Source: Nanobdellota archaeon (GTDB lineage Archaea > Nanobdellota > Nanobdellia > Pacearchaeales > GW2011-AR1). Taken from it: DNA of 64,000 nt. A model generated the notes under the pieces. It made no database searches. It had not been told where the DNA came from and saw only the letters and a list, made by a program, of their open reading frames with translations. Shown here one piece after another: positions 1-57,746 of the stretch. The stretch covers positions 51,146 to 115,145 of the forward strand of contig DUKY01000007.1 of assembly GCA_013329055.1 (NCBI GenBank). Direction: 5' to 3'. The position numbers and the translations under genes were made by a program. Within the stretch, counting starts at the first letter, position 1; each line of letters starts with the position of its first letter.

Positions 1-1
1 T

Positions 2-286
2 CAAAATGCAAAAATTGTTGAAGAAGATGGATTATCTTATCTTTTAAAACAAGATGATGAATCTAGCCTTGTTACAAGTTATGGAATAATTTGCCCAGAG
101 ATTTCTAGGATGAATAACAATGATTATTTTAAATTTTTAATAAAAGAAATTTATAGAGTCACACCAAAGAATGGGATAACTATGCATGTACACGGATTTG
201 AAAAAGAAAAAGCAATTAATTTATTTGGATCTTCTGGATTTAAACCCTTGGGAGATTGGATCCTCCAATTTGTCTGGAAAAAATAA
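2..286 (+). CDS. C-terminal fragment of a protein running off the window start, possibly a SAM-dependent methyltransferase C-terminus
   Basis: Frame open from nt 2 to the stop at 284-286 (…RVTPKNGITMHVHGFEKEK…). There is no start codon in the window. Function is a weak guess. Confidence 0.3.
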   Translation, partial: QNAKIVEEDGLSYLLKQDDESSLVTSYGIICPEISRMNNNDYFKFLIKEIYRVTPKNGITMHVHGFEKEKAINLFGSSGFKPLGDWILQFVWKK

Positions 287-4337: not shown

Positions 4338-7136
4338 TTGAAAATGAACGATAAAATAAAAATAAAAGGTGCCCGACAGCACAATTTGAAGAATATAAGT
4401 ATTGAATTACCTAGAGATAAATTAATAGTTATTACCGGTTTATCGGGGAGTGGAAAATCCACTCTTGCATTTGACACATTATATGCTGAGGGTCAAAGAC
4501 GATATGTTGAAAGTTTAAGTTCTTATGCTCGGCAATTTTTAGGTTTAATGAGCAAGCCGGATGTTGATTCTATAGAGGGGTTAAGTCCTGCAATTTCTAT
4601 TGAGCAAAAAACTACAAGCAAGAATCCTCGTTCTACTGTCGGAACAGTTACTGAAATTTATGATTATTTAAGGCTACTTTATGCTCGAATTGGAATTCCT
4701 CATTGTCCTATACATAATATTAAAATTGAAGCTCAATCTCCTGAAAAGATTTCTCAAAAAATTGCTGAAGATTTTACAGGACAAATTACTATTTTATCTC
4801 CTATTATTAGACAGCAAAAAGGAACTTACGAACAATTATTTTTAGATTTAAACAAAGAAGGTTATGCAAGAGCAAGAGTAAACGGACATATATTAAGAAC
4901 TGATGAAACAATCAAGCTTGAAAGATACAAAAAACATGATATTGAGGTAATAATTGATCGGTTAGATGTGAAGGATAAATCAAGGCTTGCTGAAGCAGTT
5001 GAAAATGCATTAATTAAATCTAAGGGATTACTAATAGTTGAAAATAATGGAAAGGATAAATTCTATTCAGGAAATATGACTTGCCCTAAGTGTGATATTT
5101 CATTTGAAGAATTGCAACCTAGAATGTTTTCATTTAATTCACCTTTTGGGGCTTGTGAAGGATGCCATGGATTAGGAATTAAAATGATTTTTGATGAAGA
5201 TTTAATTATTCCCGATAAAGAATTAAGTATCATTGACGGGGCAATAAAAATTTATGGAAAAATTGATATGTCTTGGCGTGGACAACAATTGCAGGCAGTT
5301 GGAAAAAAATTTGGTTTTGATATTTATACACCAATAAAAAAATTTAATGAAAAACAAATTCAAACATTATTTTATGGTTCAACTGAAGCAATTAAAGGCA
5401 AATGGGATACAGGGGCAAATATGAATTTTGAAAATGGATGGGAGGGTTTGATTCCTCAATCAGAAAGATTGTATAAATCAACAGATTCAGATTATCGAAG
5501 AAAATTTTTAGAAAAGTTTATGAGAGTGAATAAATGTTCAGTTTGTGACGGAAAAAGATTAAAGCAAAAAATATTAGCGGTTAAGATTAATAATAAATCA
5601 ATAATTGATGTTACAGACTTATCAATACAAGAAGTGATTGTATTTTTTAATAATTTAGAATTAACTAAACAAGAAGAAAAAATTTCAAGGCAGATTTTAA
5701 AAGAAATACGTGAGAGATTAGGATTTTTAGAGAGAGTTGGTTTAGGTTATTTGACATTGTCAAGAAATGCCGGGACATTATCAGGAGGAGAAGGGCAAAG
5801 AATCAGGCTTGCAACACAGATTGGATCAAATTTAACAGGAGTTTTATATATTTTAGATGAACCTTCAATCGGACTTCATCAAAGGGATAATCATAAATTA
5901 ATTGAAACATTACAAAAATTAAGAGACATTGGAAATACTTTGATTGTTGTTGAACATGATGAAGATACGATTATGAATGCTGATTATGTTGTGGATATTG
6001 GTCCTGGTGCAGGAATTCATGGAGGAGAAATTGTTGCAAAAGGTACTCCTCAAGAAATTATTAAAAATAAAAATTCTTTAACAGGACAATATTTATCAGG
6101 AGTTCAATTTATCGAAGTTCCTAAAATTCGACGAGAAAAGGGTGAACCAATTAAAATTGTTGGATGCACAGAAAATAACTTAAAAAATATTGATGTTGAA
6201 ATTCCTACAAGAATTTTAACTTGTGTTACGGGAGTATCTGGTTCAGGAAAATCTACATTAATTAATGAAATTTTATATAAAGGAATGATGAAAAAAATTC
6301 ATCAATCAAATATTAAAGCAGGAGAGCATAAAGGGATTTATACAGAAGCTTATATTGATAAAGTAATTGTTATTGACCAATCCCCAATTGGCAAGACTCC
6401 TAGGAGTAACCCTGCAACTTATATTGGAGTTTTTGATGAAATCCGAAAAGTTTTCGCGAGTACTAAAGAAGCTAAAATGAAGGGATATAAATTAGGAAGA
6501 TTTAGTTTTAATGTTCCTGGTGGAAGATGCGAAAAGTGCAGTGGAGATGGGACAATTAAAATTGAGATGAATTTTTTACCTGATGTTTACATTGAATGTG
6601 AAGAATGCAAAGGCAAAAGATATAATTCTGAAACATTGGAAATAAAATATAAAGATAAATCTATTGCAGAAGTTTTGGATATGAGTGTTGAGGAAGCTTT
6701 GGATTTTTTCAAATTTATTCCATCTATTAAAAATAAATTAGAAACATTAAATCAGGTGGGTTTAGGTTATATTAAATTAGGGCAAAGTTCAACAACTTTA
6801 TCAGGGGGTGAAAGCCAGAGAATAAAATTGACAAAAGAATTATCTAAACGTGGAACAGGACAGACATTATATTTACTTGATGAACCTACAACAGGGTTAC
6901 ATTTTCATGATACAAGAAAATTAATTGGGGTACTAAATAACTTAGTAGATAAAGGGAATACGATTATAGTAATTGAGCATAATTTAGATGTTATTAAATG
7001 TGCAGATCACATAATTGATTTAGGTCCTGAAGGAGGAGACGGGGGAGGATACATTGTCGCAACTGGAACTCCAGAAGAAATTGTTAAGGATAAAATAAGT
7101 TATACGGGCAAATATTTAAAGCCTTTACTTAAATGA
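4338..7136 (+). CDS. uvrA: Excinuclease ABC subunit A
   Basis: Two ABC ATPase modules ([18 protein letters not shown]), Zn-finger Cys pairs and LSGGE signature motifs are present. Confidence 0.95.
7090..7134. repeat. 45-bp direct repeat, copy 1 (covers the last 14 codons of uvrA)
   Basis: Perfect match to 8594-8638: ataaaataagttatacgggcaaatatttaaagcctttacttaaat. Confidence 0.9.
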
Positions 7137-17679: not shown

Positions 17680-19236
17680 ATGAAAAAAATAAATTTATCA
17701 AAAATACCCAGTAATCCCGGATGTTATCTCTTTAAAGATAATTTAAATTTAATAATTTATGTGGGCAAAGCTAAAAATCTGAAAAAAAGAGTGAAATCAT
17801 ATTTCCAAAATAAAGAACAGGATGAAAAAACAAAAGCAATGATTTCTCATATTAATGATGTTGAATTTATTGTTACAGATACGGAGATTGAATCATTTTT
17901 ATTGGAAAATACTTTGATTAAAAAGCATAATCCTAAATATAATATTAATTTAAAGGATTCTAAGAGATATGCTTTTATTGAAAAAACAAATGAAGAATTT
18001 CCAAGATTAATCATCGCAAGAACAAAAGATGTTGAAGGAAAACTTTTTGGACCATTTATCTCTGCGTCTATGCGGGATGAAATAATTTATCTTTTAAATA
18101 AAATATTTAAGTTGAGGACTTGCAAAAGATTGCCTAAAAAAGTTTGTCTAAGATATTCTTTAGGATTATGTTCTGCACCATGCGAAAAAAAGATTTCTAA
18201 AAAAGATTATTTAGAGGATATTAATTCTTGTCAAAAAATTTTGCAAGGAAATATCAAAGGATTATCAAAAGAATTAAATGAAAAAATGCAAGAGGCTTCA
18301 AATAAAAATAATTTTGAAATGGCAATGAAATTAAGAGATCAAATTAATGCTATTAAAATTTTAACTGAAAAACAAAATGTTGAAAGACAAAAAAACTATG
18401 ATGAAGACATTATCAATTATTTAATTAGAAAAGATAAAGTTTATCTTATGCTTTTTAATATTAATAAAGGAGTTTTAGAGAATACGCAGGAATTTATTTT
18501 TGAGTATAGAAAATATTTTTTTGAAGAATTTTTATCTAGATATTATTCTGAAAATCAAATTCCAAAAGTAATAATTTTACCTAAAGAGATTGATGAATCT
18601 TTAATTAAATATTTAGAATTAAAAAGAAAACAAAAAATAAAAATAATTATCCCAAAGATAGGTGAATTGAAAGATTTAATAACATTAGTTAAAAAGAATA
18701 TTGAAGCAACATTTTTTCCAAAAGAGGAAGGTTTGATTGAATTAAAAGATAAATTGAATTTAGATAAAATTCCTTCAATAATAGAATGTTTTGATATTTC
18801 ACATTTAAGCGGAACAGAAACAGTTGGTTCAATGGTGCAATACAAAGATGGAATTTCAAATAAATCTGAATATAGAAAATTTAAAATTAAAGGAGATTAT
18901 GGAATTGATGACTTTGCTTCAATTGAAGAAATTGTTTATAGGAGATATTATCGGATTGTTAAAGAAGGATTAAAATTGCCTGATTTAATCATTGTTGATG
19001 GCGGGGCAGGACAATTAAGTTTTGCACTTAAAGCATTAGAAAAATTAAAAATTAAAATTCCGGTAATTGGTTTAGCAAAAAAAGAAGAAGAAATTTATTT
19101 GCCAAATAAGGATATACTAAGATTAAACAATAAAAATAAAGGGTTGCTGTTATTAATTTCTATAAGAGATGAAGCACATAGATTTGCTATTAGTTTTCAA
19201 AGGCTGAGAAGAAGAAAAATATTATTTAAGAAATAA
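17680..19236 (+). CDS. uvrC: Excinuclease ABC subunit C
   Basis: N-terminal GIY-YIG (GCYLFKD…YVGKAKNLKKR), UvrBC-interaction region, and C-terminal RNaseH-like/HhH regions. Confidence 0.9.
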   Translation: MKKINLSKIPSNPGCYLFKDNLNLIIYVGKAKNLKKRVKSYFQNKEQDEKTKAMISHINDVEFIVTDTEIESFLLENTLIKKHNPKYNINLKDSKRYAFIEKTNEEFPRLIIARTKDVEGKLFGPFISASMRDEIIYLLNKIFKLRTCKRLPKKVCLRYSLGLCSAPCEKKISKKDYLEDINSCQKILQGNIKGLSKELNEKMQEASNKNNFEMAMKLRDQINAIKILTEKQNVERQKNYDEDIINYLIRKDKVYLMLFNINKGVLENTQEFIFEYRKYFFEEFLSRYYSENQIPKVIILPKEIDESLIKYLELKRKQKIKIIIPKIGELKDLITLVKKNIEATFFPKEEGLIELKDKLNLDKIPSIIECFDISHLSGTETVGSMVQYKDGISNKSEYRKFKIKGDYGIDDFASIEEIVYRRYYRIVKEGLKLPDLIIVDGGAGQLSFALKALEKLKIKIPVIGLAKKEEEIYLPNKDILRLNNKNKGLLLLISIRDEAHRFAISFQRLRRRKILFKK

Positions 19237-20360: not shown

Positions 20361-22316
20361 ATGGTAAATAATAAATTTAACCTTATAACAGAACTAAAAC
20401 CGCAAGGTTCACAACCGGAAGCGATAAAAGAACTTACAGAAGGGATATTAAAAGGAGAAAAGATGCAAACCTTACTTGGAGTTACTGGAAGTGGTAAAAC
20501 TTTTACTATCGCTAACGTTATTAAAAACGTGAATAAACCAACATTAGTTTTAGCACATAATAAAACTCTTGCAGCACAATTATATGAAGAATTAAAATCA
20601 TTTTTCCCGGAGAATAGAGTTGAATATTTTGTTTCTTATTATGATTATTATCAACCTGAAAGTTACATCCCTTCAACAGATCAGTACATTGAAAAAGATT
20701 CTAAAATAAACGCTAAAATTGAGCAAATGCGTTTATCAACTGCAGCATCCTTAATGGGAAGAAAAGATGTTATTGTTGTTTCATCTGTTTCATGTATTTA
20801 CGGTTTAGGTAAACCTGAGAATTTTGAAAAGTTTAGATTCGGTCTAAGAGTTGGACAAAATATTTCACGAAAAGAAATTTTATTAAAATTAATTAATTCA
20901 CAGTATGAAAGAAATGATACAGATTTATCTGCGGGAAAATTTAGAGTTAAAGGGGATATTATAGATTTAGCTCCTGGTTATTTTAATAATACAATCCGGA
21001 TTGAATTATTCGGAGATGTTGTTGAGAAAATATTTGAGATAGACAAAATTACCGGTAAAAAGATTGATTCTTTAGATTATTTTTCTGTTTATCCTGCAAA
21101 ACATTTTATTGTTCCGGAAGAAGATATTACTCCTGCACTTGAGTTGATAAAAAAAGAACTAAAAGAAACTTTAACGAAAATGCCTATGCTTGAAGCACAT
21201 CGATTAAAACAAAGAACATTGCATGATATTGAGATGATTAAAGAAACAGGTTATTGCAAGGGTATTGAAAATTATTCAAGACATTTTGACGGAAGAAAAT
21301 CCGGTGAACCCCCGTATACATTAATGGATTATTTTAGCGATGATTCCCTGATTATTATTGATGAATCGCATCAGACAATTCCACAGATTCATGGGATGTA
21401 TAAGGGAGATAAAGCGAGAAAGAAAAATTTAATTGATTTTGGTTTTCGTCTTCCTAGTGCATATGATAATAGACCATTAAAATTTGATGAATTTGAAAAA
21501 ATAATGGATAGACGTCAAACAATTTTTGTTTCAGCTACACCTTCAGAATATGAGAAAGAAAATTCTTCAAGAATAGTTGAGCAAATTATCAGGCCAACTG
21601 GTTTAGTTGACCCAGAAGTATCGGTTAAACCACTGGATAATCAGGTTGAAGATGTGAAGATTGAAATTGACAAGGCTATAAAAAAGGGTCATAGAATTTT
21701 GGTTACTACATTAACAAAAAGATTAGCAGAAGAGTTAACAGAATATTTAGCCGAATCCGGGATTAAAACAAGATATTTACATTCGGAAATTGATACTCTT
21801 GAACGTACTGAAATTATTCGGCAGTTAAGATTAGGGGAGTTTGATGTTTTGGTTGGAATTAATTTATTGAGAGAAGGAATTGATATTCCGGAGGTTGGTT
21901 TTGTAGGAATTTTAGATGCTGATAAAGAAGGATTCTTGCGTAATGATAAATCTTTAATTCAAACAATTGGGCGGGCTGCGAGAAATTCTGAGGCAAAAGT
22001 TATACTTTATGCAAATAACATGACTGATTCAATAAAAAAGGCGATTGATGAAACTAACAGAAGAAGAAAAATTCAGGAGGATTATAATAAGAAACACCAT
22101 ATTGAACCTAAAACAATTATTAAGCCTATTAAAGAAAAAGAAGTTGATGTGAAAGATATTAAACATATTCCAAAAAAAGAAATTCCAAACATTTTAATTG
22201 AACTTGAAGCAGAGATGAGGGACATGGCAGAAAAATTGGAGTTTGAAAAAGCTATTAATATTAGAAATAGGATGAAAAAATTAAAAGAAAAAATCGGTAT
22301 GAAAGATTTTGATTGA
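20361..22316 (+). CDS. uvrB: Excinuclease ABC subunit B
   Basis: Helicase motifs (GVTGSGKT, DESH), the beta-hairpin region and a C-terminal UvrB/UvrC interaction domain. Confidence 0.95.
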   Translation: MVNNKFNLITELKPQGSQPEAIKELTEGILKGEKMQTLLGVTGSGKTFTIANVIKNVNKPTLVLAHNKTLAAQLYEELKSFFPENRVEYFVSYYDYYQPESYIPSTDQYIEKDSKINAKIEQMRLSTAASLMGRKDVIVVSSVSCIYGLGKPENFEKFRFGLRVGQNISRKEILLKLINSQYERNDTDLSAGKFRVKGDIIDLAPGYFNNTIRIELFGDVVEKIFEIDKITGKKIDSLDYFSVYPAKHFIVPEEDITPALELIKKELKETLTKMPMLEAHRLKQRTLHDIEMIKETGYCKGIENYSRHFDGRKSGEPPYTLMDYFSDDSLIIIDESHQTIPQIHGMYKGDKARKKNLIDFGFRLPSAYDNRPLKFDEFEKIMDRRQTIFVSATPSEYEKENSSRIVEQIIRPTGLVDPEVSVKPLDNQVEDVKIEIDKAIKKGHRILVTTLTKRLAEELTEYLAESGIKTRYLHSEIDTLERTEIIRQLRLGEFDVLVGINLLREGIDIPEVGFVGILDADKEGFLRNDKSLIQTIGRAARNSEAKVILYANNMTDSIKKAIDETNRRRKIQEDYNKKHHIEPKTIIKPIKEKEVDVKDIKHIPKKEIPNILIELEAEMRDMAEKLEFEKAINIRNRMKKLKEKIGMKDFD

Positions 22317-23220: not shown

Positions 23221-23503
23221 AACCGCCAAGCCCCTGAAAGAAGATATGATTTAAATCATATTATAAACCACTGATAGGAATAGTGGACATTATTTATTTT
23301 TTTATTTAATTCCTTAAAATTTTATAAAATCCCGACGGGATTTTCCTCATAACCCATGAAAGCTTCTTTAAATTCACCCTCAAAAGTTATTCGTTCATTT
23401 ATTCGAACTTTCAGAGTTACTCGCCCGCAACTTTTAAAGTTTTTTGAATCTACTCAGATTAAACCCTTGAAATAAATATATACCTTTCTGTTTGTATATA
23501 TTA

Positions 23504-23599
23504 TGACCCCGACGGGAGTTGAACCCGCGACACCCAGATATCTCCATTGATAATTAAATCTAAGAGTCTGGTGCTCTAACCAGGCTGAGCTACGGAGCC
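23504..23599 (-). tRNA. tRNA-Lys (anticodon CUU) with a ~21-nt intron at the canonical 37/38 position
   Basis: Manual fold: acceptor GGCUCCG/CGGGGUC, D arm GCUC-AGCCUGGUUA-GAGC, anticodon stem CCAGA/UCUGG with loop CUCUUAA interrupted by GAUUUAAUUAUCAAUGGAGAU. T arm GCGGG-UUCAACU-CCCGU, discriminator A. Confidence 0.75.
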
Positions 23600-24030
23600 A
23601 TAGTAAAACATTAGTGATTTACTTTAAAAATATGTTGATTTACGTTAGCACCAGACGTAACTGGGGACGTTGAAAATTTGCCAAAAAGAAATTTTTAACA
23701 ATCAGAGAATTAAATTACAATTCTCTGAATCTAACCAGGCTGAAGCTACTGCAGCCATAGTAAAACATTAGTGATTTACTTTAAAAATATGTTGATTTAC
23801 GTTAGCACCAGATGTAAAGAGTCTGGAGACGTTGAAAATTTGCCAAAAAGAAATTTTTAACGATCAGAGAATTAAATTACAATTCTCTGAGTCTAACCAG
23901 GCTGAAGCTACTGCAGCCATAGTAAAACATTATTGATTTACTTTGGCACCAGACGTAAAGAGTCTGGGGACGTTGAAAATTTTGTAAAAAGAAATTTTTA
24001 ACGATCAGAGAATAGATTGATTGAAAATTT
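23600..24030. repeat. Tandem array upstream of tRNA-Lys: about 2.7 units of ~160 bp, each carrying a promoter-like segment, a 27-nt degenerate copy of the tRNA 5' end and a 10-bp-stem hairpin
   Basis: Repeated gcagccat (complement of the tRNA 5' end GGCUGCAG…) at ~23751-23758 and 23911-23918. Repeated cagagaattaaattacaattctctg hairpin. Confidence 0.8.
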
Positions 24031-29329: not shown

Positions 29330-29485
29330 ATTATATTAAAATAATCATATTATTTAAATCTTTTTTGCCGAAAGGAATTTTTATTCTTTTTATGATTTGC
29401 AAAAGGATTATTACTGGGAAATAAATAATTAGGGATAATATAACAGTGTTCTACTCCAAAATTTGCTTTTTTTCTAAAACCCTAA

Positions 29486-29496
29486 CTTTTAAAAAT
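29486..29496 (+). promoter_or_regulatory. Duplicated copy of the tRNA-His promoter-like A/T box upstream of the tRNA-His pseudo-copy
   Basis: ttttaaaaatc lies ~30 nt upstream of the GGCGG start. The whole ~75 bp upstream segment is duplicated at 29440-29525 and 29740-29805. Confidence 0.3.
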
Positions 29497-29525
29497 CTCA
29501 TAATTTATCTATAAACATTCATAAT

Positions 29526-29736
29526 GGCGGTTGTGGTATACAGAAATTAAAAATTTCTGTCCCTACAGGATTAAACTGTGCCTTCGCACAGAAAGATATT
29601 AAAAATCCTGAAGGTACAGAGATTAAAAATTCTGTCCTACAGGATTAAACTGTGCCTTCGCACAGAAAAATATTAAAAATCCTGCAGGTAACGGTTATTA
29701 CATACGGTTGGGGTCAGAGCAAAGAGGGTTCGACTC
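29526..29736 (+). pseudogene. Truncated/disrupted tRNA-His copy: 5' 15 nt, then a 150-bp hairpin-dimer insertion, then a mutated anticodon/T region, with no 3' acceptor strand
   Basis: GGCGGTTGTGGTATA | 29541-29690 insertion | ACGGTTATTACATACGGTTGGGGTCAGAGCAAAGAGGGTTCGACTC, then the duplicated promoter region. Confidence 0.55.
29541..29690. repeat. Tandem dimer (76 + 74 bp) of a cruciform-like hairpin module inserted in the D-loop of the tRNA-His pseudo-copy
   Basis: Each unit has cagaaattaaaaatttctg and caggatt…ctgtgccttcgcacag…aatcctg hairpins and ends in ggta. Confidence 0.8.
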
Positions 29737-29766
29737 AAAAATTCGCTTTTTTTCTAAAACCTTAAC

Positions 29767-29778
29767 TTTTAAAAATCT
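29767..29778 (+). promoter_or_regulatory. Candidate archaeal TATA-like box for tRNA-His
   Basis: cttttaaaaatc lies about 28-40 nt upstream of the tRNA start at 29806. Confidence 0.3.
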
Positions 29779-29805
29779 CATAATTTATCTATAAACATCA
29801 ATAAT

Positions 29806-29878
29806 GGCGGTTGTGGTATAACGGTTATTACGTCCGGTTGTGGTCCGGGCAAAGAGGGTTCGACTCCCTCCATCCGCT
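29806..29878 (+). tRNA. tRNA-His (anticodon GUG) with an encoded G-1
   Basis: Manual fold: G-1, acceptor GCGGUUG/CAUCCGC (one U·U), D arm GUAU-AACGGUUA-UUAC, anticodon stem UCCGG/CCGGG with loop UUGUGGU. T arm GAGGG-UUCGACU-CCCUC. Confidence 0.75.
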
Positions 29879-30352
29879 TAATAAATCAGAGACGAACCCT
29901 GGGTTCGATGAAAAATTTTGTGGTAGAAACTTATTCTTTCAGATAAAAATTCAAGCATTGAATAAAAGAGTTTCGTGCAAGATTTTGAACATCCCTCCAT
30001 CCGCTTATTTTCTTTACAGAAAATTGCGTAAGTTCGGGAGTCTTCGACTCCACAATTCGCATTCCGTGAAAGCTTCTTTAAATCAAGGAAAATTTTGATT
30101 TATTTGAACTTTCAGAAATGCTCAATTCGCATTCCGTGAAAGCTTCTTTAAATCAAGGAAAATTTTGATTTATTTGAACTTTCAGAAATGCTCACCATCC
30201 GTTTAATAAATAAGAGGCGAACCCCGGAGTTCGATGAAAAATTTTGTGGTAGAAACTTATTTTTTCAGATAAAAATTCAAGGATTGAACAAAAGAGTTTC
30301 GTGCAAGATTTTTAACATCCCTCCATCCGCGTTTTATTTTTAAGAAAGATTT
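29879..30352. repeat. Array of 3-4 modules downstream of tRNA-His, each bounded by a copy of the tRNA 3'-terminal 12 nt (CCCTCCATCCGC)
   Basis: 3'-end copies at 30003-30014, 30195-30201 (partial) and 30319-30330. Modules 29879-30002 and 30202-30318 are ~90% identical. The middle module has a tandem ~82-bp duplication (30046-30189). Confidence 0.8.
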
Positions 30353-30393
30353 TAATAAGTTCTATTCTAATATAATTATATTAAAGAGATAAA

Positions 30394-30828
30394 ATGAAAT
30401 ACAATAATATAAAAAATATTCTTTTTGTTTGCAAGTATAACGCTTTTAGGAGCAGATTTGCAGAGTCTTATTTTAATAAATTAAATAAAAATAAATCAAT
30501 TAAGGCAATTAGCAGAGGGTTTATTATGAATGCTAGTTCAGATTCTGTTCAAAGAAAGATTGCTAAGAAATTTAATGGTGATATTATTGGAGAACCTAAA
30601 CCCGTCAAATTAAATGAAATGATTGAAGCAGATTTGATTGTAATTGTTGCAAATGATGTTCCAAAAATTATGTTTAATTATGCCCTTAAACCTATTTATA
30701 AAAAAGTTGTTGTTTGGAAGATAAAAGATGAACAAAAGAAAAATGAAAAAAATATTATTAAAATTGTTAAAAAAATTCAAAAGAAAGTTGAGAGATTAAT
30801 TAAAAAATTGGAGAAAGAACTAAAATGA
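30394..30828 (+). CDS. Low-molecular-weight phosphotyrosine phosphatase / ArsC-like (LMWP family)
   Basis: P-loop CX5R (LFVCKYNAFRSR). The C-terminus is Lys-rich. Confidence 0.65.
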   Translation: MKYNNIKNILFVCKYNAFRSRFAESYFNKLNKNKSIKAISRGFIMNASSDSVQRKIAKKFNGDIIGEPKPVKLNEMIEADLIVIVANDVPKIMFNYALKPIYKKVVVWKIKDEQKKNEKNIIKIVKKIQKKVERLIKKLEKELK

Positions 30829-31265
30829 AGATTAATTTAGTTAAATCTAAGAAAAATGAATTAAAAGAAATTTCAAAGATTTATATGGAAGCGTTTTCTA
30901 AACCCCCTTATGAAGAAATTTGGACTTTAAAAAAAGCTTCAAATAAAATAAAATTTTTTTATGAATTCTATGATTTATATTCGATAAAAGCAGATAAAAA
31001 ATTAGTTGGTTTTGCAGTAATTAATCCTAATTTTATGTGCCCCGGGGAGGTTGCTTTTGGAGAAGAAATTGCGATTAAAGAAAATTTTCAAGGAAAGGGG
31101 ATTGGAACAATTGTGAATAAAAAACTTTTTGAAATTTATAAGAAAAAAGGCTATGGATCATTTATGATTATTGCACATAAAAAATCTAAAGCAGTTAAAT
31201 TATATAAAAGACTGGGGATTAATATATCTAAAGAAGGAATACTCATGGAGAAAGAACTAAAATGA
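30825..31265 (+). CDS. GNAT-family N-acetyltransferase
   Basis: Acetyl-CoA binding motif QGKGIGTIVNKKLFE. 4-nt overlaps on both sides. Confidence 0.65.
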   Translation: MKINLVKSKKNELKEISKIYMEAFSKPPYEEIWTLKKASNKIKFFYEFYDLYSIKADKKLVGFAVINPNFMCPGEVAFGEEIAIKENFQGKGIGTIVNKKLFEIYKKKGYGSFMIIAHKKSKAVKLYKRLGINISKEGILMEKELK

Positions 31266-43869: not shown

Positions 43870-45165
43870 TTATCTAACATTGCTCCAATATTCCAAAGCC
43901 GTTTTTAACTCAGGGTGTGTTTTTGCATATTCATCTAAAGAAATTTTTTTCATGGTAGCATCAACAGCTTGACGCATTGCCCTTGCTCCGACAATTGTCC
44001 CTTGTGGATGACCGTGAATTCCTCCACCTGCCTGAATTACAACATCTTTACCCATAAAGTCTATAATTTTATCTACAATTCTTGGATAAACTCCTCCTGA
44101 AGCTACTGCGAACACAGGTTTAGTTCCATACCATTTTTGTTCAAGATTATTTTTTGTTTCAGGAGTAAAGTTATTTTCAATTTCTTGTTCTATATGCAAA
44201 ACTTCATTTTTATCTCCGGTCATTTTTCCATAGGCAGTTCCAATATGAAGCGTATCTACACCGACCATTCTAGCCCACTGTGCAATAATTTCCATGCTCA
44301 TGCCATGTTCAGGATTTCTATCAAACATTGCATGTCCTGCCCTATGTGCATGAATTGGAAGCTTTGTAAAGTTTCTTGCAGTTTGCAATGCACTCCAACC
44401 TAATGTGAGAATATCAAGCATAATATAATTTCCCCCATTTTCTTCCACAAATTTAATCCGCCTTTTCATCTCTTCACATTCTGCTGTGCAATTAATCAAA
44501 TAAACTTTCTTTTCCCCTGTTTCTTTTTCTGCTTTTTTTAAAGCTTTAATTGTCAACAAAAATCTTTTTTTGAATTTGTTAAAATTTTGACTTGTTAAAT
44601 TCTCGTCATCTTTTACAACGTCACATCCGCCTAACCATGATTCATATGCTACTTTTGCATGTTCTTTAGAAGTTAAACCTACTTTTGGTTTTACAATTGT
44701 TCCTACTAATGGTCTGTCTTTAATTTTCAAATATTTTCTTATACCTTTAATTCCATAACGTGGACCTTTAAAACTTTTTAACATTTTTTTTGGGATTCTT
44801 ACGTCTTCCCATAAAATTCCATCTGCACTTTTCATTCCGTAAATATTTCCGCCGATAGAAGACATTACACAGGGTAAATTTCCAAGTTCAAATAAATCCA
44901 GAGGATAAGCAATTCTAATTCGTTTATTTTCTTTATCAAGATAATATACTTTTGGAGCTAATTTTTTACCTATTTTTGGATTCATTGTTTTTACATCTGT
45001 CCATGTTCCAACACTACTTTCTCCTGCAACCATGCTTGCTACATCATTAAATTCATAACCTTTTGCGGGAGTTATTTTAAATTGGCAAAGAACATCAGTA
45101 TCTCTTGGCTTATATTTTAAATCAATAAAACTTCTATAACCGGATTTCAATTTTGTTTCCACCAT
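43870..45165 (-). CDS. rbcL: Ribulose-1,5-bisphosphate carboxylase large subunit, archaeal form III (or II/III)
   Basis: Active-site region GGCDVVKDDENLTSQ, CO2-acceptor Lys context, and C-terminal GGGIHGHPQG. Confidence 0.9.
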   Translation of the reverse strand: MVETKLKSGYRSFIDLKYKPRDTDVLCQFKITPAKGYEFNDVASMVAGESSVGTWTDVKTMNPKIGKKLAPKVYYLDKENKRIRIAYPLDLFELGNLPCVMSSIGGNIYGMKSADGILWEDVRIPKKMLKSFKGPRYGIKGIRKYLKIKDRPLVGTIVKPKVGLTSKEHAKVAYESWLGGCDVVKDDENLTSQNFNKFKKRFLLTIKALKKAEKETGEKKVYLINCTAECEEMKRRIKFVEENGGNYIMLDILTLGWSALQTARNFTKLPIHAHRAGHAMFDRNPEHGMSMEIIAQWARMVGVDTLHIGTAYGKMTGDKNEVLHIEQEIENNFTPETKNNLEQKWYGTKPVFAVASGGVYPRIVDKIIDFMGKDVVIQAGGGIHGHPQGTIVGARAMRQAVDATMKKISLDEYAKTHPELKTALEYWSNVR

Positions 45166-48002: not shown

Positions 48003-48863
48003 ATGAAATCACAGGAAATATTAAAACTTGAAGAAAGATTGTTTAATGAAGTTAAAGATAGAGGAACGTGTGTATCTGAACCAACTGCAATAATGCTTGC
48101 AAGTCATGATTTTAAAAATATTGAAGAATTATATCAAGCACAGGAAAATTTTGAAAAACTTATTTTAAAATTCAAAAACAGTTCTAAATATAAAGAACTT
48201 CTAGAATATCATCAAAGATATGAATATCCTATCTCTGAATTTCAATTTTGTGAAATAATTGCAATGCATGAATGGATGTATCGAAATAATGAAGACATTT
48301 ATGACAAAACTCAAACAAGTGTACCGATTGCAATAGAAAAAATATTAAATGATGAAGATAAAGTCGGACAATGCACTGCATTAACCGGACTAATGTGGGC
48401 TTTCGGAGCAGTTGAAGGGATTAATTTAACAGCATACTCTACAATTGACCATGTACTAACTTGCTATAATGATACACAAAAAAATATTCCATTGGAAAAT
48501 ACTTCGAAATATAATTTCACTCCGATGTATCCCCCTGTTAGATCAAAAAAAATAAAATTTCCAGCATTTTTAGCAGAATGTTTTAGTAATAAGGGATCTG
48601 CAAAAAATAATTTAGGAGATGATCATGGGGCAATAAAAGATTATGATGAAGCAATTAGATTAAACCCAGAAAACGAAAAAGCATGGAATAATAGAGGAGT
48701 AGCTAAGTATAGATTAGGGAGATATTCGGAAGCAATAAAAGATTATAAGGAAGCAATTAGATTAAATCCAAAATATACAACTGCACAAGATAATAGAAAA
48801 TTAGCTTTAAGAAAATTAAACAAGTTTTCGAGGATATTTACCCAACTATCAAACTATTTCTAA
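48003..48863 (+). CDS. TPR-repeat protein
   Basis: C-terminal tandem TPR units (AWNNRGVAKYRLGRYSEAIKDYKEAIRLNP). Confidence 0.6.
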   Translation: MKSQEILKLEERLFNEVKDRGTCVSEPTAIMLASHDFKNIEELYQAQENFEKLILKFKNSSKYKELLEYHQRYEYPISEFQFCEIIAMHEWMYRNNEDIYDKTQTSVPIAIEKILNDEDKVGQCTALTGLMWAFGAVEGINLTAYSTIDHVLTCYNDTQKNIPLENTSKYNFTPMYPPVRSKKIKFPAFLAECFSNKGSAKNNLGDDHGAIKDYDEAIRLNPENEKAWNNRGVAKYRLGRYSEAIKDYKEAIRLNPKYTTAQDNRKLALRKLNKFSRIFTQLSNYF

Positions 48864-50129
48864 TTTTTCGATATACATCTCTTTAATTTTCTTTAAATTT
48901 TTCTTTTTCCAAAATTCAATAAATTGAGGGAGATTCATAGAAATTTTTTCTTTTGAATAAATTTTATCTTCTTTTGTAAAAGTTTTTTTATGTTCCTTTT
49001 TGAATTTTAAAACACTTTCTTTATCTTTAATAAGTGGTCCCTCAAAGATAATTTCATTTCTTTTTTTTGCTACAAAAAAATATCTTGCAGATTGCTTTTT
49101 ATTATAATTAAAACCTTTATTTTTAATCTCAAAAGAATTATTTATTTCTTCACTTAGATGTTTATAAAATTTTAATAATTTGCTTCCTGCAACATCTCCT
49201 GGCTGTTTAGGGGTCATTGATTCCAGCAAAACAAATTCGTCTTTCTTTTTTATTGCATCACTTTTGATTTTTTCAAGATCTGTTTTTTGAACCTCAAAAG
49301 ATTTTATCGAGGGATTTTTCAAAAATCCTGAGCATTCTGTCTGAAATTTATTAAATGTTTCCTGCGATAACGCGGCTAAAGTATTACGCTGTTTATATGT
49401 GGGGTCAACTAAAATAATTGGGGAATTTAATTTAGAACTATTTATATCCATTAAAACAACAGATTTATTTTTATAATATTTTTCAATGTCAATAACTAAT
49501 TTATCTTTTTTTACTTTTGTCATTGCTTTTAAGAAATTTATAAAACCTTTATAATAATAGACTAATAATTCTAAAGAATATCCGGAAAAACCTCCGATAT
49601 AAGATTCTGCTCCATAGCAATGATTGGCATGACAAAATGCTTTTGCAATTTTTATGTCATTTAAAATTTCCTGAGATTTAATGTTTTTATTAATATATTT
49701 AACATGCGAGTAAGATAAATCAGTTATGTTTTCTGCCTGTTCCGGGCTATTTATTTTTTTTACAGGAATTAATTCAATATATAATTCAGAATTGATAATC
49801 ACCCGATAATAATCCCTTGATCCATGAACTTTTAAAAGATTTTTAAAACCTTTCAAAGCTTTAGCAGTTAATCCCGAAAGGTCTTTGTCGTCGTATTTTT
49901 TATCAAAACGGACAAATACATCCACATCATAAGAATCTTTTTTTATTACAGTTTTTTTTGCAAAACTTCCGCCAATAAATACTTCAGCTTTAATTTTTAA
50001 TTTTTTTAGATTTTGATTAAATTTTTTTAAAAAATCTTTCAAGGATGTATCAATAAGTTTCAAATCTTCTTTTGAAGGTTCAACCTGAATCAAAACCTGA
50101 TTTAAAATTTGATTAATTTTTTTTGTCAT
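48849..50129 (-). CDS. cca: Archaeal class I CCA-adding tRNA nucleotidyltransferase
   Basis: FIGGSFAKKTVIKKDSYDVDVFV nucleotidyltransferase motif and archaeal CCA architecture. Confidence 0.8.
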   Translation of the reverse strand: MTKKINQILNQVLIQVEPSKEDLKLIDTSLKDFLKKFNQNLKKLKIKAEVFIGGSFAKKTVIKKDSYDVDVFVRFDKKYDDKDLSGLTAKALKGFKNLLKVHGSRDYYRVIINSELYIELIPVKKINSPEQAENITDLSYSHVKYINKNIKSQEILNDIKIAKAFCHANHCYGAESYIGGFSGYSLELLVYYYKGFINFLKAMTKVKKDKLVIDIEKYYKNKSVVLMDINSSKLNSPIILVDPTYKQRNTLAALSQETFNKFQTECSGFLKNPSIKSFEVQKTDLEKIKSDAIKKKDEFVLLESMTPKQPGDVAGSKLLKFYKHLSEEINNSFEIKNKGFNYNKKQSARYFFVAKKRNEIIFEGPLIKDKESVLKFKKEHKKTFTKEDKIYSKEKISMNLPQFIEFWKKKNLKKIKEMYIEKLEIV

Positions 50130-57128: not shown

Positions 57129-57685
57129 TCACTACTTACAGAGAATCAAAGATTCTCTGAAACACAAAATCTATACTGTGCCTACGCACAGATCAGAAGT
57201 ACAGATTTTGTTGTGTCCTAAAAAATTTCTAAAGAAATTTTTGGGAATTCAGAGATTGAAAATCTCTGGAACTTCAGGGAACCTGAAGTCTTCAAAAGGC
57301 GTTACTTTTGAAGTAATCTAACCCTTGGGTTATATTCACTTCAAAATATACTTGTTTTGAAGTCCCAGAGAATTTGAAAAATTCTCTGAGCCTCCTTAAT
57401 GGGTACGGAGGTACAGAGAATCAAAGATTCTCTGAAACACAAAATCTATACTGTGCCTACGCACAGATCAGAATTACAGATTTTGTTGTGTCCTAAAAAA
57501 TTTCTAAAGAAATTTTTGGGAATTCAGAGATTGAAAATCTCTGGAACTTCAGGGAACCTGAAGTCTTCAAAAGGCGTTACTTTTGAAGTAATCTAACCCT
57601 TGGGTTATATTCACTTCAAAATATACTTGTTTTGAAGTCCCAGAGAATTTGAAAAATTCTCTGAGCCTCCTTAATGGGTACGGAG
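57129..57685. repeat. Two tandem ~285-bp units, each a string of ~9 short hairpins, each ending in a copy of the tRNA-Trp 3' end
   Basis: Unit period 57129 to 57414. Hairpins include cagagaatcaaagattctctg, ctgtgcctacgcacag, cagagattgaaaatctctg, cttcagggaacctgaag. Terminal ccttaatgggtacggag occurs at 57394-57410 and 57669-57685. Confidence 0.85.
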
Positions 57686-57746
57686 GGAATCTAACCCCCG
57701 TCTGCCGGGCTGGAGCCGACCATAATAAACATTATACTACGCACCC
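57675..57746 (-). tRNA. Candidate tRNA-Trp (anticodon CCA) with atypical D- and T-loops
   Basis: Manual fold: acceptor GGGUGCG/CGUACCC, anticodon stem GUCGG/CCGGC with loop CUCCAGC, T arm GGGGG-UUAGAUU-CCCUC. D-loop AAUGUUUA lacks GG and T-loop lacks C56. Confidence 0.5.

Follow-up and report, generated by a model that had tools for sequence, protein, structure and literature searches.

Arrays of loop-interrupted partial tRNA copies and miniature hairpin cassettes at tRNA genes of a Pacearchaeota-type archaeon

The window, i.e. the whole stretch of DNA analysed here, covers 64 kb from a low-GC DPANN archaeon of the Pacearchaeota type, a groundwater lineage. The best protein matches of its histidyl-tRNA synthetase (HisRS) are named Pacearchaeota or Nanoarchaeota by their sources, and the contig is also found in Rifle groundwater assemblies and in the metagenome-assembled genome (MAG) GCA_013331835.1. 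ARAGORN and Rfam call three tRNA genes in the window (Lys, His and Trp), and its large-period tandem repeats sit solely at these three genes. The resulting arrays combine partial copies of the local tRNA with small hairpin cassettes that belong to shared families, are restricted to tRNA loci, and enter either the D loop, between TA flanks, or the T loop, often between nucleotides 59 and 60. The arrays differ between assemblies by whole units, some copies change in parallel with the tRNA, and two of the cassettes, termed A and H, are strongly conserved. For comparison, 80 loci around HisRS were fetched, one genome per species (labels of the form L0xx designate fetched loci or assemblies). These loci carry 89 non-redundant tRNAs, each of which was scanned for copies of its own sequence, and the cassettes H, A and S as well as the repeat unit of the tRNA-Lys array were compared by BLAST with 1.15 Mb of fetched sequence. 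Insertion points were placed by using the intact neighbouring tRNA gene as the "empty site". The closest comparison is L011, from a sister species whose HisRS protein is 98% and flanking DNA 93-95% identical to the window.

The tRNA-His array contains the following features, in order:

29442..29466, + strand: oldest remnant, a T-loop-like sequence with a decayed 3' end (GTTCTACTCCAAAATTTGC), then a T run; 81% identical to 29724-29749.
29467..29525, + strand: promoter/leader copy 1 (duplicated), within a 99-nt repeat 92% identical to 29722-29820.
29526..29753, + strand: degenerate promoter-bearing tRNA-His duplicate, made of nt -1..14, the H dimer, nt 15..61, the decayed end AAAAATTCGC and a T7 run.
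29541..29614, + strand: H cassette unit 1, 74 nt, with hairpin 1 and an outer stem around the invariant hairpin CTGTGCCTTCGCACAG; TA at 29539-40 and 29615-16.
29617..29688, + strand: H cassette unit 2, 72 nt, followed by TA at 29689-90; 93% matches to unit 1; single-unit copy in other assemblies.
29754..29805, + strand: promoter/leader copy 2, that of the functional tRNA-His; 56/60 positions identical to L011.
29806..29879, + strand: functional tRNA-His(GTG) with encoded G-1 (ARAGORN/Rfam, 53 bits); its 3' 12-mer lies at 29866-29877.
29889..29900, + strand: anti-T-arm segment GAGACGAACCCT, complementary to tRNA nt ~49-61 (12 nt, 92%).
29901..29909, + strand: second T-arm 5' half GGGTTCGAT, i.e. 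the T-stem 5' strand and T-loop nt 54-59; like design in L011, L037, L008 and L095.
29910..29991, + strand: cassette A, an extended imperfect hairpin separating T-loop nt 59 from nt 60 in a partial copy; sense -20.7 versus antisense -13.6 kcal/mol, 4 G.U pairs.
29992..30007, + strand: 3' copy no. 2, TCCCTCCATCCGCTTA, repeating 29865-29880 exactly over 16 nt, then the T-rich run TTATTTTCTTT.
30036..30051, + strand: T-arm-like hairpin GGGAGTCTTCGACTCC in the middle module; fold z -3.2.
30053..30194, + strand: S cassette, palindromic, a perfect 70-nt x2 tandem with arms TGAAAGCTTCTTTAAAT / TTTATTYGAACTTTCA; single copy in L003/L005.
30194..30202, + strand: degenerate 3' copy no. 3 (ACCATCCGT), with the same A67 state as the tRNA.
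30203..30318, + strand: module A', a second anti-T segment, T-arm 5' half and cassette A; 89% identical to the first copy, absent from L011.
30319..30330, + strand: 3' copy no. 4 (CCCTCCATCCGC), an exact 12-mer, then GTTTTATTTTT.

Upstream of the functional gene, the promoter and the first ~15 nt of tRNA-His are duplicated as a 99-nt block (29442-29540 and 29722-29820, 280 nt apart, 92% identity), as the first-pass annotation of this DNA had already reported. It had also rightly described the interruption of this upstream copy at the D loop by a tandem dimer of a cruciform module. The dimer breaks the copy after GGTAT and spans 29539-29690 (period 74, 2.0 copies, 93% matches), the folding z-score of its ~74-nt unit being about -12. 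Beyond it, the tRNA sequence picks up again for 48 nt at 90% identity. The further claim that the upstream copy lacks the 3' acceptor strand has to be revised, since its end GACTC-AAAAATTCGC-TTTTTTT aligns to the live GACTCCCTCCATCCGC-TT, which indicates a decayed or replaced 3' end and not a clean truncation. The five substitutions found in nt 15..61 of this duplicate all fall in the anticodon arm, and its anticodon reads GGG. The 5' strand of its anticodon stem, ATACGG, is the L011 allele, so that the copy is a mosaic of two tRNA alleles. As a separate observation on tRNA-His, its acceptor stem shows a U5.U68 mismatch (window, L008, L011, L016, L037, L055 and others), accompanied in most lineages by U6.U67; in the window, A67 restores the 6:67 pair.

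Downstream of the gene, the 12-mer CCCTCCATCCGC recurs exactly only at 29993 and 30319, giving 3 occurrences in total against 0.39 expected even allowing 2 mismatches. Three further copies had been announced at first; two of them are exact, and the third is only the degenerate ACCATCCGT at 30194-30202. The true exact repeat unit is 16 nt long (TCCCTCCATCCGCTTA). The modules at 29870-30025 and 30195-30351 (~157 nt each) are 89% identical, in agreement with the earlier estimate of ~90%, and the middle module is, as stated then, internally duplicated (70 nt x2, perfect). The description of the inserts as tiny, non-coding and iterated also holds. In the tRNA sense, every well-preserved module follows a common plan: a short spacer, often an anti-T-arm segment, and the local T-stem 5' strand with the first T-loop bases, followed by the hairpin cassette, what remains of the T loop, and the 3' strands of the T stem and of the acceptor. 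Since the T-stem 5' strand and part of the T loop are found beyond the cassette, the 12-mer forms the terminus of a T-loop-split partial tRNA copy and is no free-standing repeat. Homologues of the anti-T-arm segment GAGACGAACCCT are found in L011, L008 and L037. In the minimum free energy (MFE) fold this segment pairs with the T arm, and the 5' acceptor strand pairs with copy no. 2. No T run is present between tRNA-His and copy no. 2; T-rich runs follow copy no. 2 and the upstream pseudo-copy. Written as RNA, the junction context of cassette A reads GGGUUCGAU-A-UCCCUCC. In the middle module, the continuation of hairpin GGGAGTCTTCGACTCC, CACAATTCGC, matches the 3' end of the upstream pseudo-copy. 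Cassette A also contains a 12-codon open reading frame (ORF) at 29908-29946 (MKNFVVETYSFR and a stop), with a GAGG-like motif 12-14 nt upstream. This micro-ORF is identical in L011 and missing from the homologous modules of L008 and L037, and was discarded as a functional gene.

The two other tRNA genes of the window, both on the opposite strand, carry arrays of their own:

23503-23600, - strand: tRNA-Lys(CTT), intron-containing; its array spans 23331..23944.
57675-57746, - strand: tRNA-Trp; its array spans 57137..57746 and holds a 275-nt x2 tandem, 99% identical.

Upstream of tRNA-Lys, a 162-nt x2.3 tandem repeats the promoter, the 5' 27 nt of the gene, a CAGAGAATT..AATTCTCTG hairpin and an anticodon-arm-like piece, and downstream an S-cassette module ends in TCCCGTCGGG, the gene's own T-stem-3'/acceptor strand. 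In L011, tRNA-Lys has a 55-nt intron versus 21 nt in the window, one upstream unit and at least 3 downstream units. Each unit of the Trp array is composed of an inverted-plus-direct T-arm copy (anti-T/T-arm 5' half), AACCCAAGGGTTAGATT, of ~190 nt of near-perfect hairpins including a member of the H family, and of CCTCCGTACCCA, the last 12 nt of tRNA-Trp. The Trp array folds with a z-score of about -12, and its H member is carried by the strand complementary to that of the tRNA. On the plus strand, the array is preceded at ~30 nt by a TTTAAATA box, which makes antisense transcription conceivable. All these tandems (74 nt x2, 70 nt x2 at 100%, 162 nt x2.3 and 275 nt x2) are arranged head-to-tail.

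Such arrays extend to related genomes. Among the 89 tRNAs, 12 have a second copy of their own last 12 nt (no more than 1 mismatch, up to 900 nt away) versus 1 in a reversed-pattern control, and 5 have a second copy of their own first 14 nt versus 0. Exact own-sequence copies of at least 11 nt within 1 kb occur at 16/89 tRNAs, compared with 18/1780 control flank sets. These copies show a strict polarity, 5' pieces lying upstream (7) and 3' pieces downstream (10), nearly all on the same strand as the gene. At tRNA-Glu(CTC) of L006 (11431-11950, - strand; the same as in L014), a perfect 91-nt x2.5 tandem upstream contains the first 15-22 nt of the gene. At tRNA-Phe of L095, a 60-nt x2.3 tandem with its first 15 nt is accompanied by a downstream module. 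The upstream tandem units of Phe and Glu both break at nt 15/16. Further independent cases are tRNA-Val and tRNA-Gly (L086) and tRNA-Ser and tRNA-Met (L096).

Some tRNA genes of these loci are unusual in themselves. The tRNA-Glu(CTC) of L006 has a 109-nt intron at the canonical position and is overlooked by default ARAGORN and Rfam. In L088 (2666-2824), a tRNA-His(GTG) with an intron of ~87 nt is called tRNA-Tyr by ARAGORN; the intron holds a GGAGAACC-TAA-GGTTCTCC hairpin resembling the anti-T/T palindrome of module A. An anti-T-arm segment in the trailer is found in 18/91 cases versus 6/273, and the motif is real at about ten loci. A general rule of this kind was not retained, the enrichment being confounded by the pairing of the next gene's GGAGG with the CCUCC of tRNA-His.

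The cassettes fall into families that recur at different tRNAs: S is found at His, Lys, Leu, Phe and Met, H at His and Trp (its 2 loci in the window), and B, in other species, at His and Phe. Scanning for S metagenome-wide gave 13 stretches, of which six are genuine S elements, all beside a tRNA: Leu, Phe (two), Met/Ser, Lys (three tandem units) and His. Chance similarity within a transposase reading frame accounts for the remaining 7. Over at least 6 tRNA loci, the arms of S are conserved at 17/17 and 17/18 positions. The CAGAGA..TCTCTG hairpin occurs 8 times versus 0.01 expected. A search for module copies in related genomes and metagenomes, which the first-pass annotation had proposed, thus finds them, always next to tRNA genes: every BLAST match of H, A, S and the Lys unit in the 1.15 Mb lies at most 548 nt from a tRNA. 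The orientation of S and H is not fixed. At Lys, Leu, Met and Phe, S runs antisense to the tRNA, and at His it has the tRNA's sense; the His and Lys copies of S align on the same strand though the two tRNAs are on opposite strands, and the same applies to the His H unit and part of the Trp unit. No Rfam family besides the tRNA is detected in the His region, even at relaxed E-values.

Two hot spots of insertion emerge, nt 13-16 in the D loop and nt 55-62 in the T loop. The D loop and the T loop are the two most conserved sequence blocks of tRNA genes. In the D loop, the H insertion is parsed as GGTA-TA-[CAGAAA..CAGG]-TA-ACGG versus GGTATAACGG in the live gene, and a TA also separates both H units. 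An independent D-loop insertion, in an upstream tRNA-Val copy of L086, reads AAGC-TA-[..]-TA-GCGG and starts with a similar hairpin (ACAGAAAATATGATTTTCTGT), and a third one, at His in L033, reads GGTA-TA-[..]-TA-CCGG. The H member of the Trp array is also bounded by TA..TA. RNAfold finds no bulge-helix-bulge (BHB) at the D-loop insertion junctions. In the T loop, cassettes A (window and L011) and B (His in L037 and L008, Phe in L095) lie exactly between nt 59 and 60 and always in the tRNA sense; B starts with CGARCAAG and ends with GGGCTTGKGAG. S enters at 55/57 in Leu and at about 62/63 in Met. T-loop cassettes show no target duplication, lying either precisely at 59/60 or with the loss of 1-3 nt, and each is flanked by the local tRNA's own T-stem 5'/T-loop part on one side and T-stem 3'/acceptor 3' strand on the other.

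In the reading first proposed for the locus, the repeats are the attL/attR footprint of a tyrosine recombinase: miniature non-autonomous elements would have been integrated serially in trans, the 12-16-nt repeats of the tRNA 3' end serving as attL/attR cores. The arrangement does recall att scars in having one complete tRNA, a same-strand partial 3' copy, foreign sequence in between and a repeat starting in or near the T loop, reportedly a sublocation used by integrases. Direct tRNA repeats indeed flank each insert, one copy being in the intact gene (29865-29880 and 29992-30007, with the 12-mer again at 30319). Partial tRNA duplications are said to have been traced by Reiter in 1989 and Williams in 2002 to integrase-mediated insertion of viruses, plasmids and islands. 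A-type inserts with a shared left end (GAG..GAACCCWGGGTTCGA) are found after tRNA-His in lineages of 63-72% HisRS identity and are absent in between, which would also fit integration, as would an insert of 582 nt in L016 (5385-5966), which harbors a 99-aa ORF between tRNA-His and an 11-nt copy of its 3' end. The L016 insert is the sole gene-carrying insert seen, and is possibly a small integrated element.

The documented archaeal cases, however, have att repeats of ~44 bp flanking 9-23-kb integrase-bearing elements (PMC9897764), whereas the repeats here measure 10-16 nt and the inserts 39-280 nt, without coding capacity. The integrase genes that were expected are missing: no integrase, recombinase or transposase Pfam family is found in any gene of the 64-kb window, and no integrase in the neighbouring loci either. 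The occurrence of S between Lys, Leu, Met, Phe or His flanks and in both orientations is incompatible with a sequence-specific att system, since a cassette family has neither a single cognate att sequence nor a fixed orientation. Furthermore, the cassettes sit inside the T arm and not between two complete cores, the arrays vary by tandem units, and the upstream arrays of 5' fragments and the TA-flanked D-loop inserts are left unexplained. No attP-bearing episomal form or module copy exists in the viral, phage and plasmid collections: the S, H and A patterns have 0 matches among viral contigs, and with the whole His region only a tRNA is matched in the phage collection and nothing in the plasmid collection. 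A search for attP through the tRNA 3' end in viral contigs returned only unrelated bacteriophage tRNA-Gly/Leu genes. What survives of the initial proposal is the existence of miniature element families dispersed over several tRNA loci; their mobilisation by a tyrosine recombinase is unlikely. A casposon or Cas1-type insertion, considered as the repeats cluster at 13-16 nt, was also rejected, the inserts being devoid of terminal inverted repeats. The repeat length of 13-16 nt follows from the repeats starting in the T loop and ending at the gene end.

Contigs of the same population are identical base for base, yet differ by whole units. L001 (GCA_013331835.1) has a third upstream His copy with one H unit, and L003 and L005 possess one S unit instead of two; these differences, drawn from short-read assemblies, may partly reflect assembly collapse. 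In L099, the Lys module (180 nt) is present three times. One contig stops inside the His array, and N-gaps are found inside the His and Trp arrays on two scaffolds (Trp: L106). Since the arrays recur in NCBI MAG, ENA and JGI assemblies and in the sister species, they are not an assembly artefact. In L011, the orthologous His array comprises two upstream copies, each with a single H; A' is missing, and the number of S units is one or two according to the assembly.

The cassettes A and H hardly diverge in sequence. At the four-fold degenerate sites of six flanking genes, the window and L011 differ at 84/484 positions (17.4%), compared with 2/92 positions for cassette A and 1/75 for the H unit. 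The functional tRNA-His differs at 13/73 positions (18%), several of them compensatory, and the flanking DNA by ~5%. With CCCTCCTTCCGC as the outgroup state, the window has T67A in all four 3' copies. In L011, both the tRNA and copy no. 2 carry T64C, accompanied by A50G in the body of the tRNA; cassette A, which separates the tRNA from that copy, is unchanged. The near-invariance of A and H and the tracking of the tRNA by its copies imply either that the cassettes have a function and selection keeps the copies in agreement with the tRNA, or that homogenisation is strong. Conservation of this degree across 17% neutral divergence suggests that A and H may be unrecognised functional elements in very small genomes.

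The strand behaviour of the cassettes separates them into two sets. The H cassette contains 1 G.U in 47 pairs and the Trp unit 4-6 in ~98, and both fold equally well on both strands; this near-pure Watson-Crick pairing makes them DNA-palindrome-like. The inner hairpin of H, ACTGTGCCTNCGCACAGA, is invariant between the His and Trp copies, and the outer stem is wholly different in sequence yet paired (5/25 pairs with double changes, all from a single divergence). All of the A and B cassettes (6/6) fold better in the tRNA sense, by 2.5 to 8 kcal/mol, and up to 7 of their sense-strand G.U pairs become mismatches on the opposite strand. As predicted by these folds, A and B look like sense RNA hairpins that would be co-transcribed with the tRNA. 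H and S have the appearance of palindromic DNA elements.

Replication errors could produce part of this pattern. In such a scheme, slippage, fold-back and template switching through T- and D-loop microhomology at hairpin-forming tRNA genes would generate debris that then decays. Much of the array is indeed tRNA-derived in both orientations (CGAACCC-T-GGGTTCG, TAACCC-AA-GGGTTA and CTGCG-TTT-CGCAG), the arms of cassette A look like T-loop plus 3'-end sequence duplicated in inverse orientation, and a TTCGACTCC microhomology is common to the junctions. Perfect tandem units are present, and the scarcity of G.U pairs in H and the Trp unit is that of DNA palindromes. On the other hand, S, H and B are unlike the local tRNA and nonetheless occur repeatedly, with conserved arms, at the loci of different tRNAs. 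The insertion junctions are precise (TA..TA; 59/60), the outer stem of H covaries, and decaying debris would not be conserved at 98-99%, as A and H are, in the face of 17% neutral divergence. Debris is a rather unlikely origin for the arrays. A related proviso of the first-pass annotation was that the modules might be degenerate whole-tRNA duplications only; much of the array does derive from tRNA, but the cassettes do not. Copies made from cDNA stops at modified bases (m1A58, archaeosine-15) were considered and rejected, as the copies carry the genomic trailer and not CCA, the 5' fragments would stay unexplained and no reverse transcriptase was seen.

The position of A and B brings to mind another family of explanations, based on RNA processing. 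Disrupted archaeal tRNA genes include those with non-canonical BHB introns and split or permuted genes, and intron transposition in Thermoproteales as well as a model of disruption by mobile elements have been described (PMC3218864, PMC3293823, PMC4033280). In the permuted tRNAs of Thermofilum and Cyanidioschyzon, the junction is at 59/60. In a Caldiarchaeum population study, a 5' tRNA fragment and a gained intron have been linked to a 1.8-kb recombinase-bearing element. The arrays share with these genes the interruptions in loops, the 59/60 junction and related inserts in different tRNAs, here in a DPANN host, and with Caldiarchaeum a 5' tRNA fragment upstream of an intact gene. A and B might accordingly be BHB-type intron-like insertions at 59/60 of a duplicated 3' exon, co-transcribed with the tRNA and cut by the splicing endonuclease. 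Stable circular RNAs could result, or copy no. 2 could serve as an alternative 3' strand, the arrays being intermediates of intron gain or gene splitting. Several observations speak for such a model: the constant tRNA-sense orientation and better sense folding of A and B (6/6), the missing terminator before copy no. 2, the pairing of the 5' acceptor strand with that copy in the MFE fold, the covariation between this copy and the T stem in the body of the tRNA (T64C and A50G in L011), and the strong conservation of cassette A. For A, it is possible to draw a BHB of relaxed type (h GGG/CCC, H UUCG/UGAA, 3' bulge CAU), from which a 7-nt T loop, UUCGAUU, would result. Finally, standard scans fail to find tRNA-Val or tRNA-Trp in some Pacearchaeales.

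However, only relaxed, hand-drawn versions of the hBHBh' motif fit the A and B junctions. RNAfold prefers other pairings, for A a mirror image (GAUG/CAUC) in which the bulges flank the central helix on the incorrect side; the length of the 5' bulge would be 5 nt, and for B the central helix is limited to 3 bp. The interrupted copies, in contrast to disrupted tRNA genes, are redundant, incomplete and next to an intact gene: lacking nt 1-48 and having a poor T-stem 5' strand of its own, such a copy would give no tRNA alone, and those of L008, L054 and L072 are degenerate. No sole-copy tRNA interrupted by a cassette is found in the 80 loci, in which apparent absences are explained by long introns of the canonical type or by sequence that is unrelated. 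The model does not fit S and H either, found as they are at other positions and in either orientation, nor the D-loop insertion with no BHB. Pairing in trans between the trailer of the pseudo-copy and the cassette leader is weak in the window (~8/10 pairs, AU-rich) and absent in L011, and trans-splicing of tRNA-His was rejected; the same holds for tRNA-Lys, the upstream 5' fragments of which (GGCTGCA) cannot pair with the available 3' strand. The arrays hence differ from split tRNA genes in having no complementary leader/trailer pair for trans-splicing, and from the 1.8-kb recombinase-encoding separation of Caldiarchaeum in having a 50-280-nt non-coding cassette. The intron-like nature of A and B is doubtful, with a real chance of being correct. 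Rather unlikely is the broader proposition that the arrays are live intermediates of tRNA gene disruption, whose intron-like cassettes would be transcribed from tRNA promoters, spliced out as stable, possibly circular, RNAs, and conserved for function.

Small RNAs (sRNAs) are known to ride on tRNA processing, as exemplified by the C/D box sRNA in the tRNA-Trp intron of Haloferax and by the tRNA-sRNA dicistrons of Nanoarchaeum equitans. The cassettes resemble these in being structured putative RNAs in or after tRNA-like sequence with its own tRNA promoter. In contrast, they have no Rfam match, and no C/D or K-turn motif was recognised by eye: A has GAUGA but no CUGA by the closing stem, H has CUGA and no C box, and an sRNA of this type was therefore dismissed.

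A regulatory role at the His locus was also envisaged, in which the array would act as a leader or tRNA mimic for the downstream LMWPc-acetyltransferase-HisRS genes. The linkage behind it is real, tRNA-His lying just upstream of HisRS in most of the 80 loci, and the array carries acceptor and T-arm pieces of tRNA-His and a T-arm-like hairpin. Yet the same arrays exist at tRNA-Lys and tRNA-Trp, neither of which has a synthetase in its vicinity, many relatives have no modules and tRNA-His directly before the next gene, and the copies, having the same sense as the tRNA 3' end, could not read the tRNA as a T-box does. This role is highly improbable.

The explanation favoured here, tentatively and as a plausible but far from secured account, is local duplication combined with loop-targeting miniature hairpin cassettes, homogenised by unequal recombination, with A and H retained under constraint. 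Local, mostly tandem, DNA-level duplication would have breakpoints inside the tRNA gene, so that promoter-bearing 5' pieces or decaying whole copies would pile up upstream and T-arm/acceptor 3' pieces downstream, one intact gene always being kept. A small repertoire of miniature hairpin cassettes would then colonise the redundant copies through the two conserved tRNA loops: cassette H would enter the D loop at nt 13-15 with its TA..TA flanks, A and B the T loop at 59/60, and S a few nt away in either orientation. The CCCTCCATCCGC repeats would be the T-stem-3'/acceptor-3' ends of interrupted partial copies rather than recombinase crossover cores. Unequal recombination among the repeats would shift the copy number and keep the copies matched to the live tRNA. 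The cassettes would insert as DNA and presumably survive only in redundant copies; A and B may be kept as structured RNA co-transcribed with the tRNA, and the constraint on A and H would most plausibly come from expression as structured RNA from tRNA promoters.

Several points weigh against this explanation. In the 64-kb window, neither a transposase or integrase nor any further candidate enzyme was found. No transposition chemistry known so far would account for every cassette, H having no terminal inverted repeats and the T-loop cassettes no target duplication. Selfish insertions should diverge neutrally, and the near-invariance of A and H calls for a function or for homogenisation, the latter being only assumed by the model. 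The T64C change of copy no. 2, with A50G in the tRNA body, also fits RNA pairing between the two, and 59/60 is a known RNA splice junction, so that A and B may be RNA-level elements and not DNA insertions. Lastly, part of the copy-number differences may be due to assembly collapse, as mentioned above.

Compared with known miniature elements, the cassettes are like miniature inverted-repeat transposable elements (MITEs), palindrome-associated transposable elements (PATEs, derived from IS200/IS605) and the repetitive extragenic palindromes of the REP/REPIN type in being small (50-85 nt), non-coding, multi-copy hairpin families with conserved arms, S and H occurring in either orientation. The TA flank recalls IS630/Tc1-type insertions. 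REPINs are reported to persist for long times at orthologous sites, and so do the present cassettes. In contrast to MITEs, PATEs and REPs, they are confined to tRNA loci, within the D and T loops of tRNA-derived sequence; H is devoid of terminal inverted repeats, the T-loop cassettes have no target duplication, and no partner transposase was found in the 64 kb or in the scattered further loci. The arrays are accordingly filed as a variant of both disrupted tRNA genes and miniature repeat elements, and as a member of neither. They are set apart from the Caldiarchaeum case by their scale (many loci), by the miniature non-coding cassettes, by the restriction to tRNA loops and by conservation.

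As to the gene neighbourhood, tRNA-His is followed by HisRS in ~65/80 loci (L011-L090), often with a low-molecular-weight (LMW) phosphatase gene in between, an order kept across Pacearchaeota-type genomes. In the window, a GNAT acetyltransferase gene (30825-31265) stands between LMWPc and HisRS; it is missing from the otherwise collinear L011 locus. Elsewhere, the window encodes a form III-type RuBisCO large subunit (43870-45165), a CCA-adding enzyme (48849-50129), the gene of which adjoins OapB/OapC-domain genes, and UvrA, UvrB and UvrC (at 4338-7136, 17680-19236 and 20361-22316).

No description of such tRNA fragment-and-cassette arrays was found in the literature. A 2026 preprint on 208 complete Nanobdellota genomes mentions that tRNA-Val and tRNA-Trp escape detection in some Pacearchaeales, and speculates on split genes. 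In practice, the arrays break assemblies, and their fragments risk being miscalled as tRNAs or integration scars; default tRNA finders also miss unusual genes, as with the tRNA-Glu with its 109-nt intron and the tRNA-His called Tyr. Arguments on the origin of non-canonical introns and of split and permuted tRNA genes in archaea have so far relied mostly on end states and on a single population snapshot from Caldiarchaeum. The Pacearchaeota-type lineage displays what is presumed to be the raw material at many loci: loop-interrupted partial copies, shared cassettes and variation between close relatives. If the arrays were indeed live intermediates, they would offer a direct view of how archaeal tRNA introns and split and permuted tRNA genes arise and spread.

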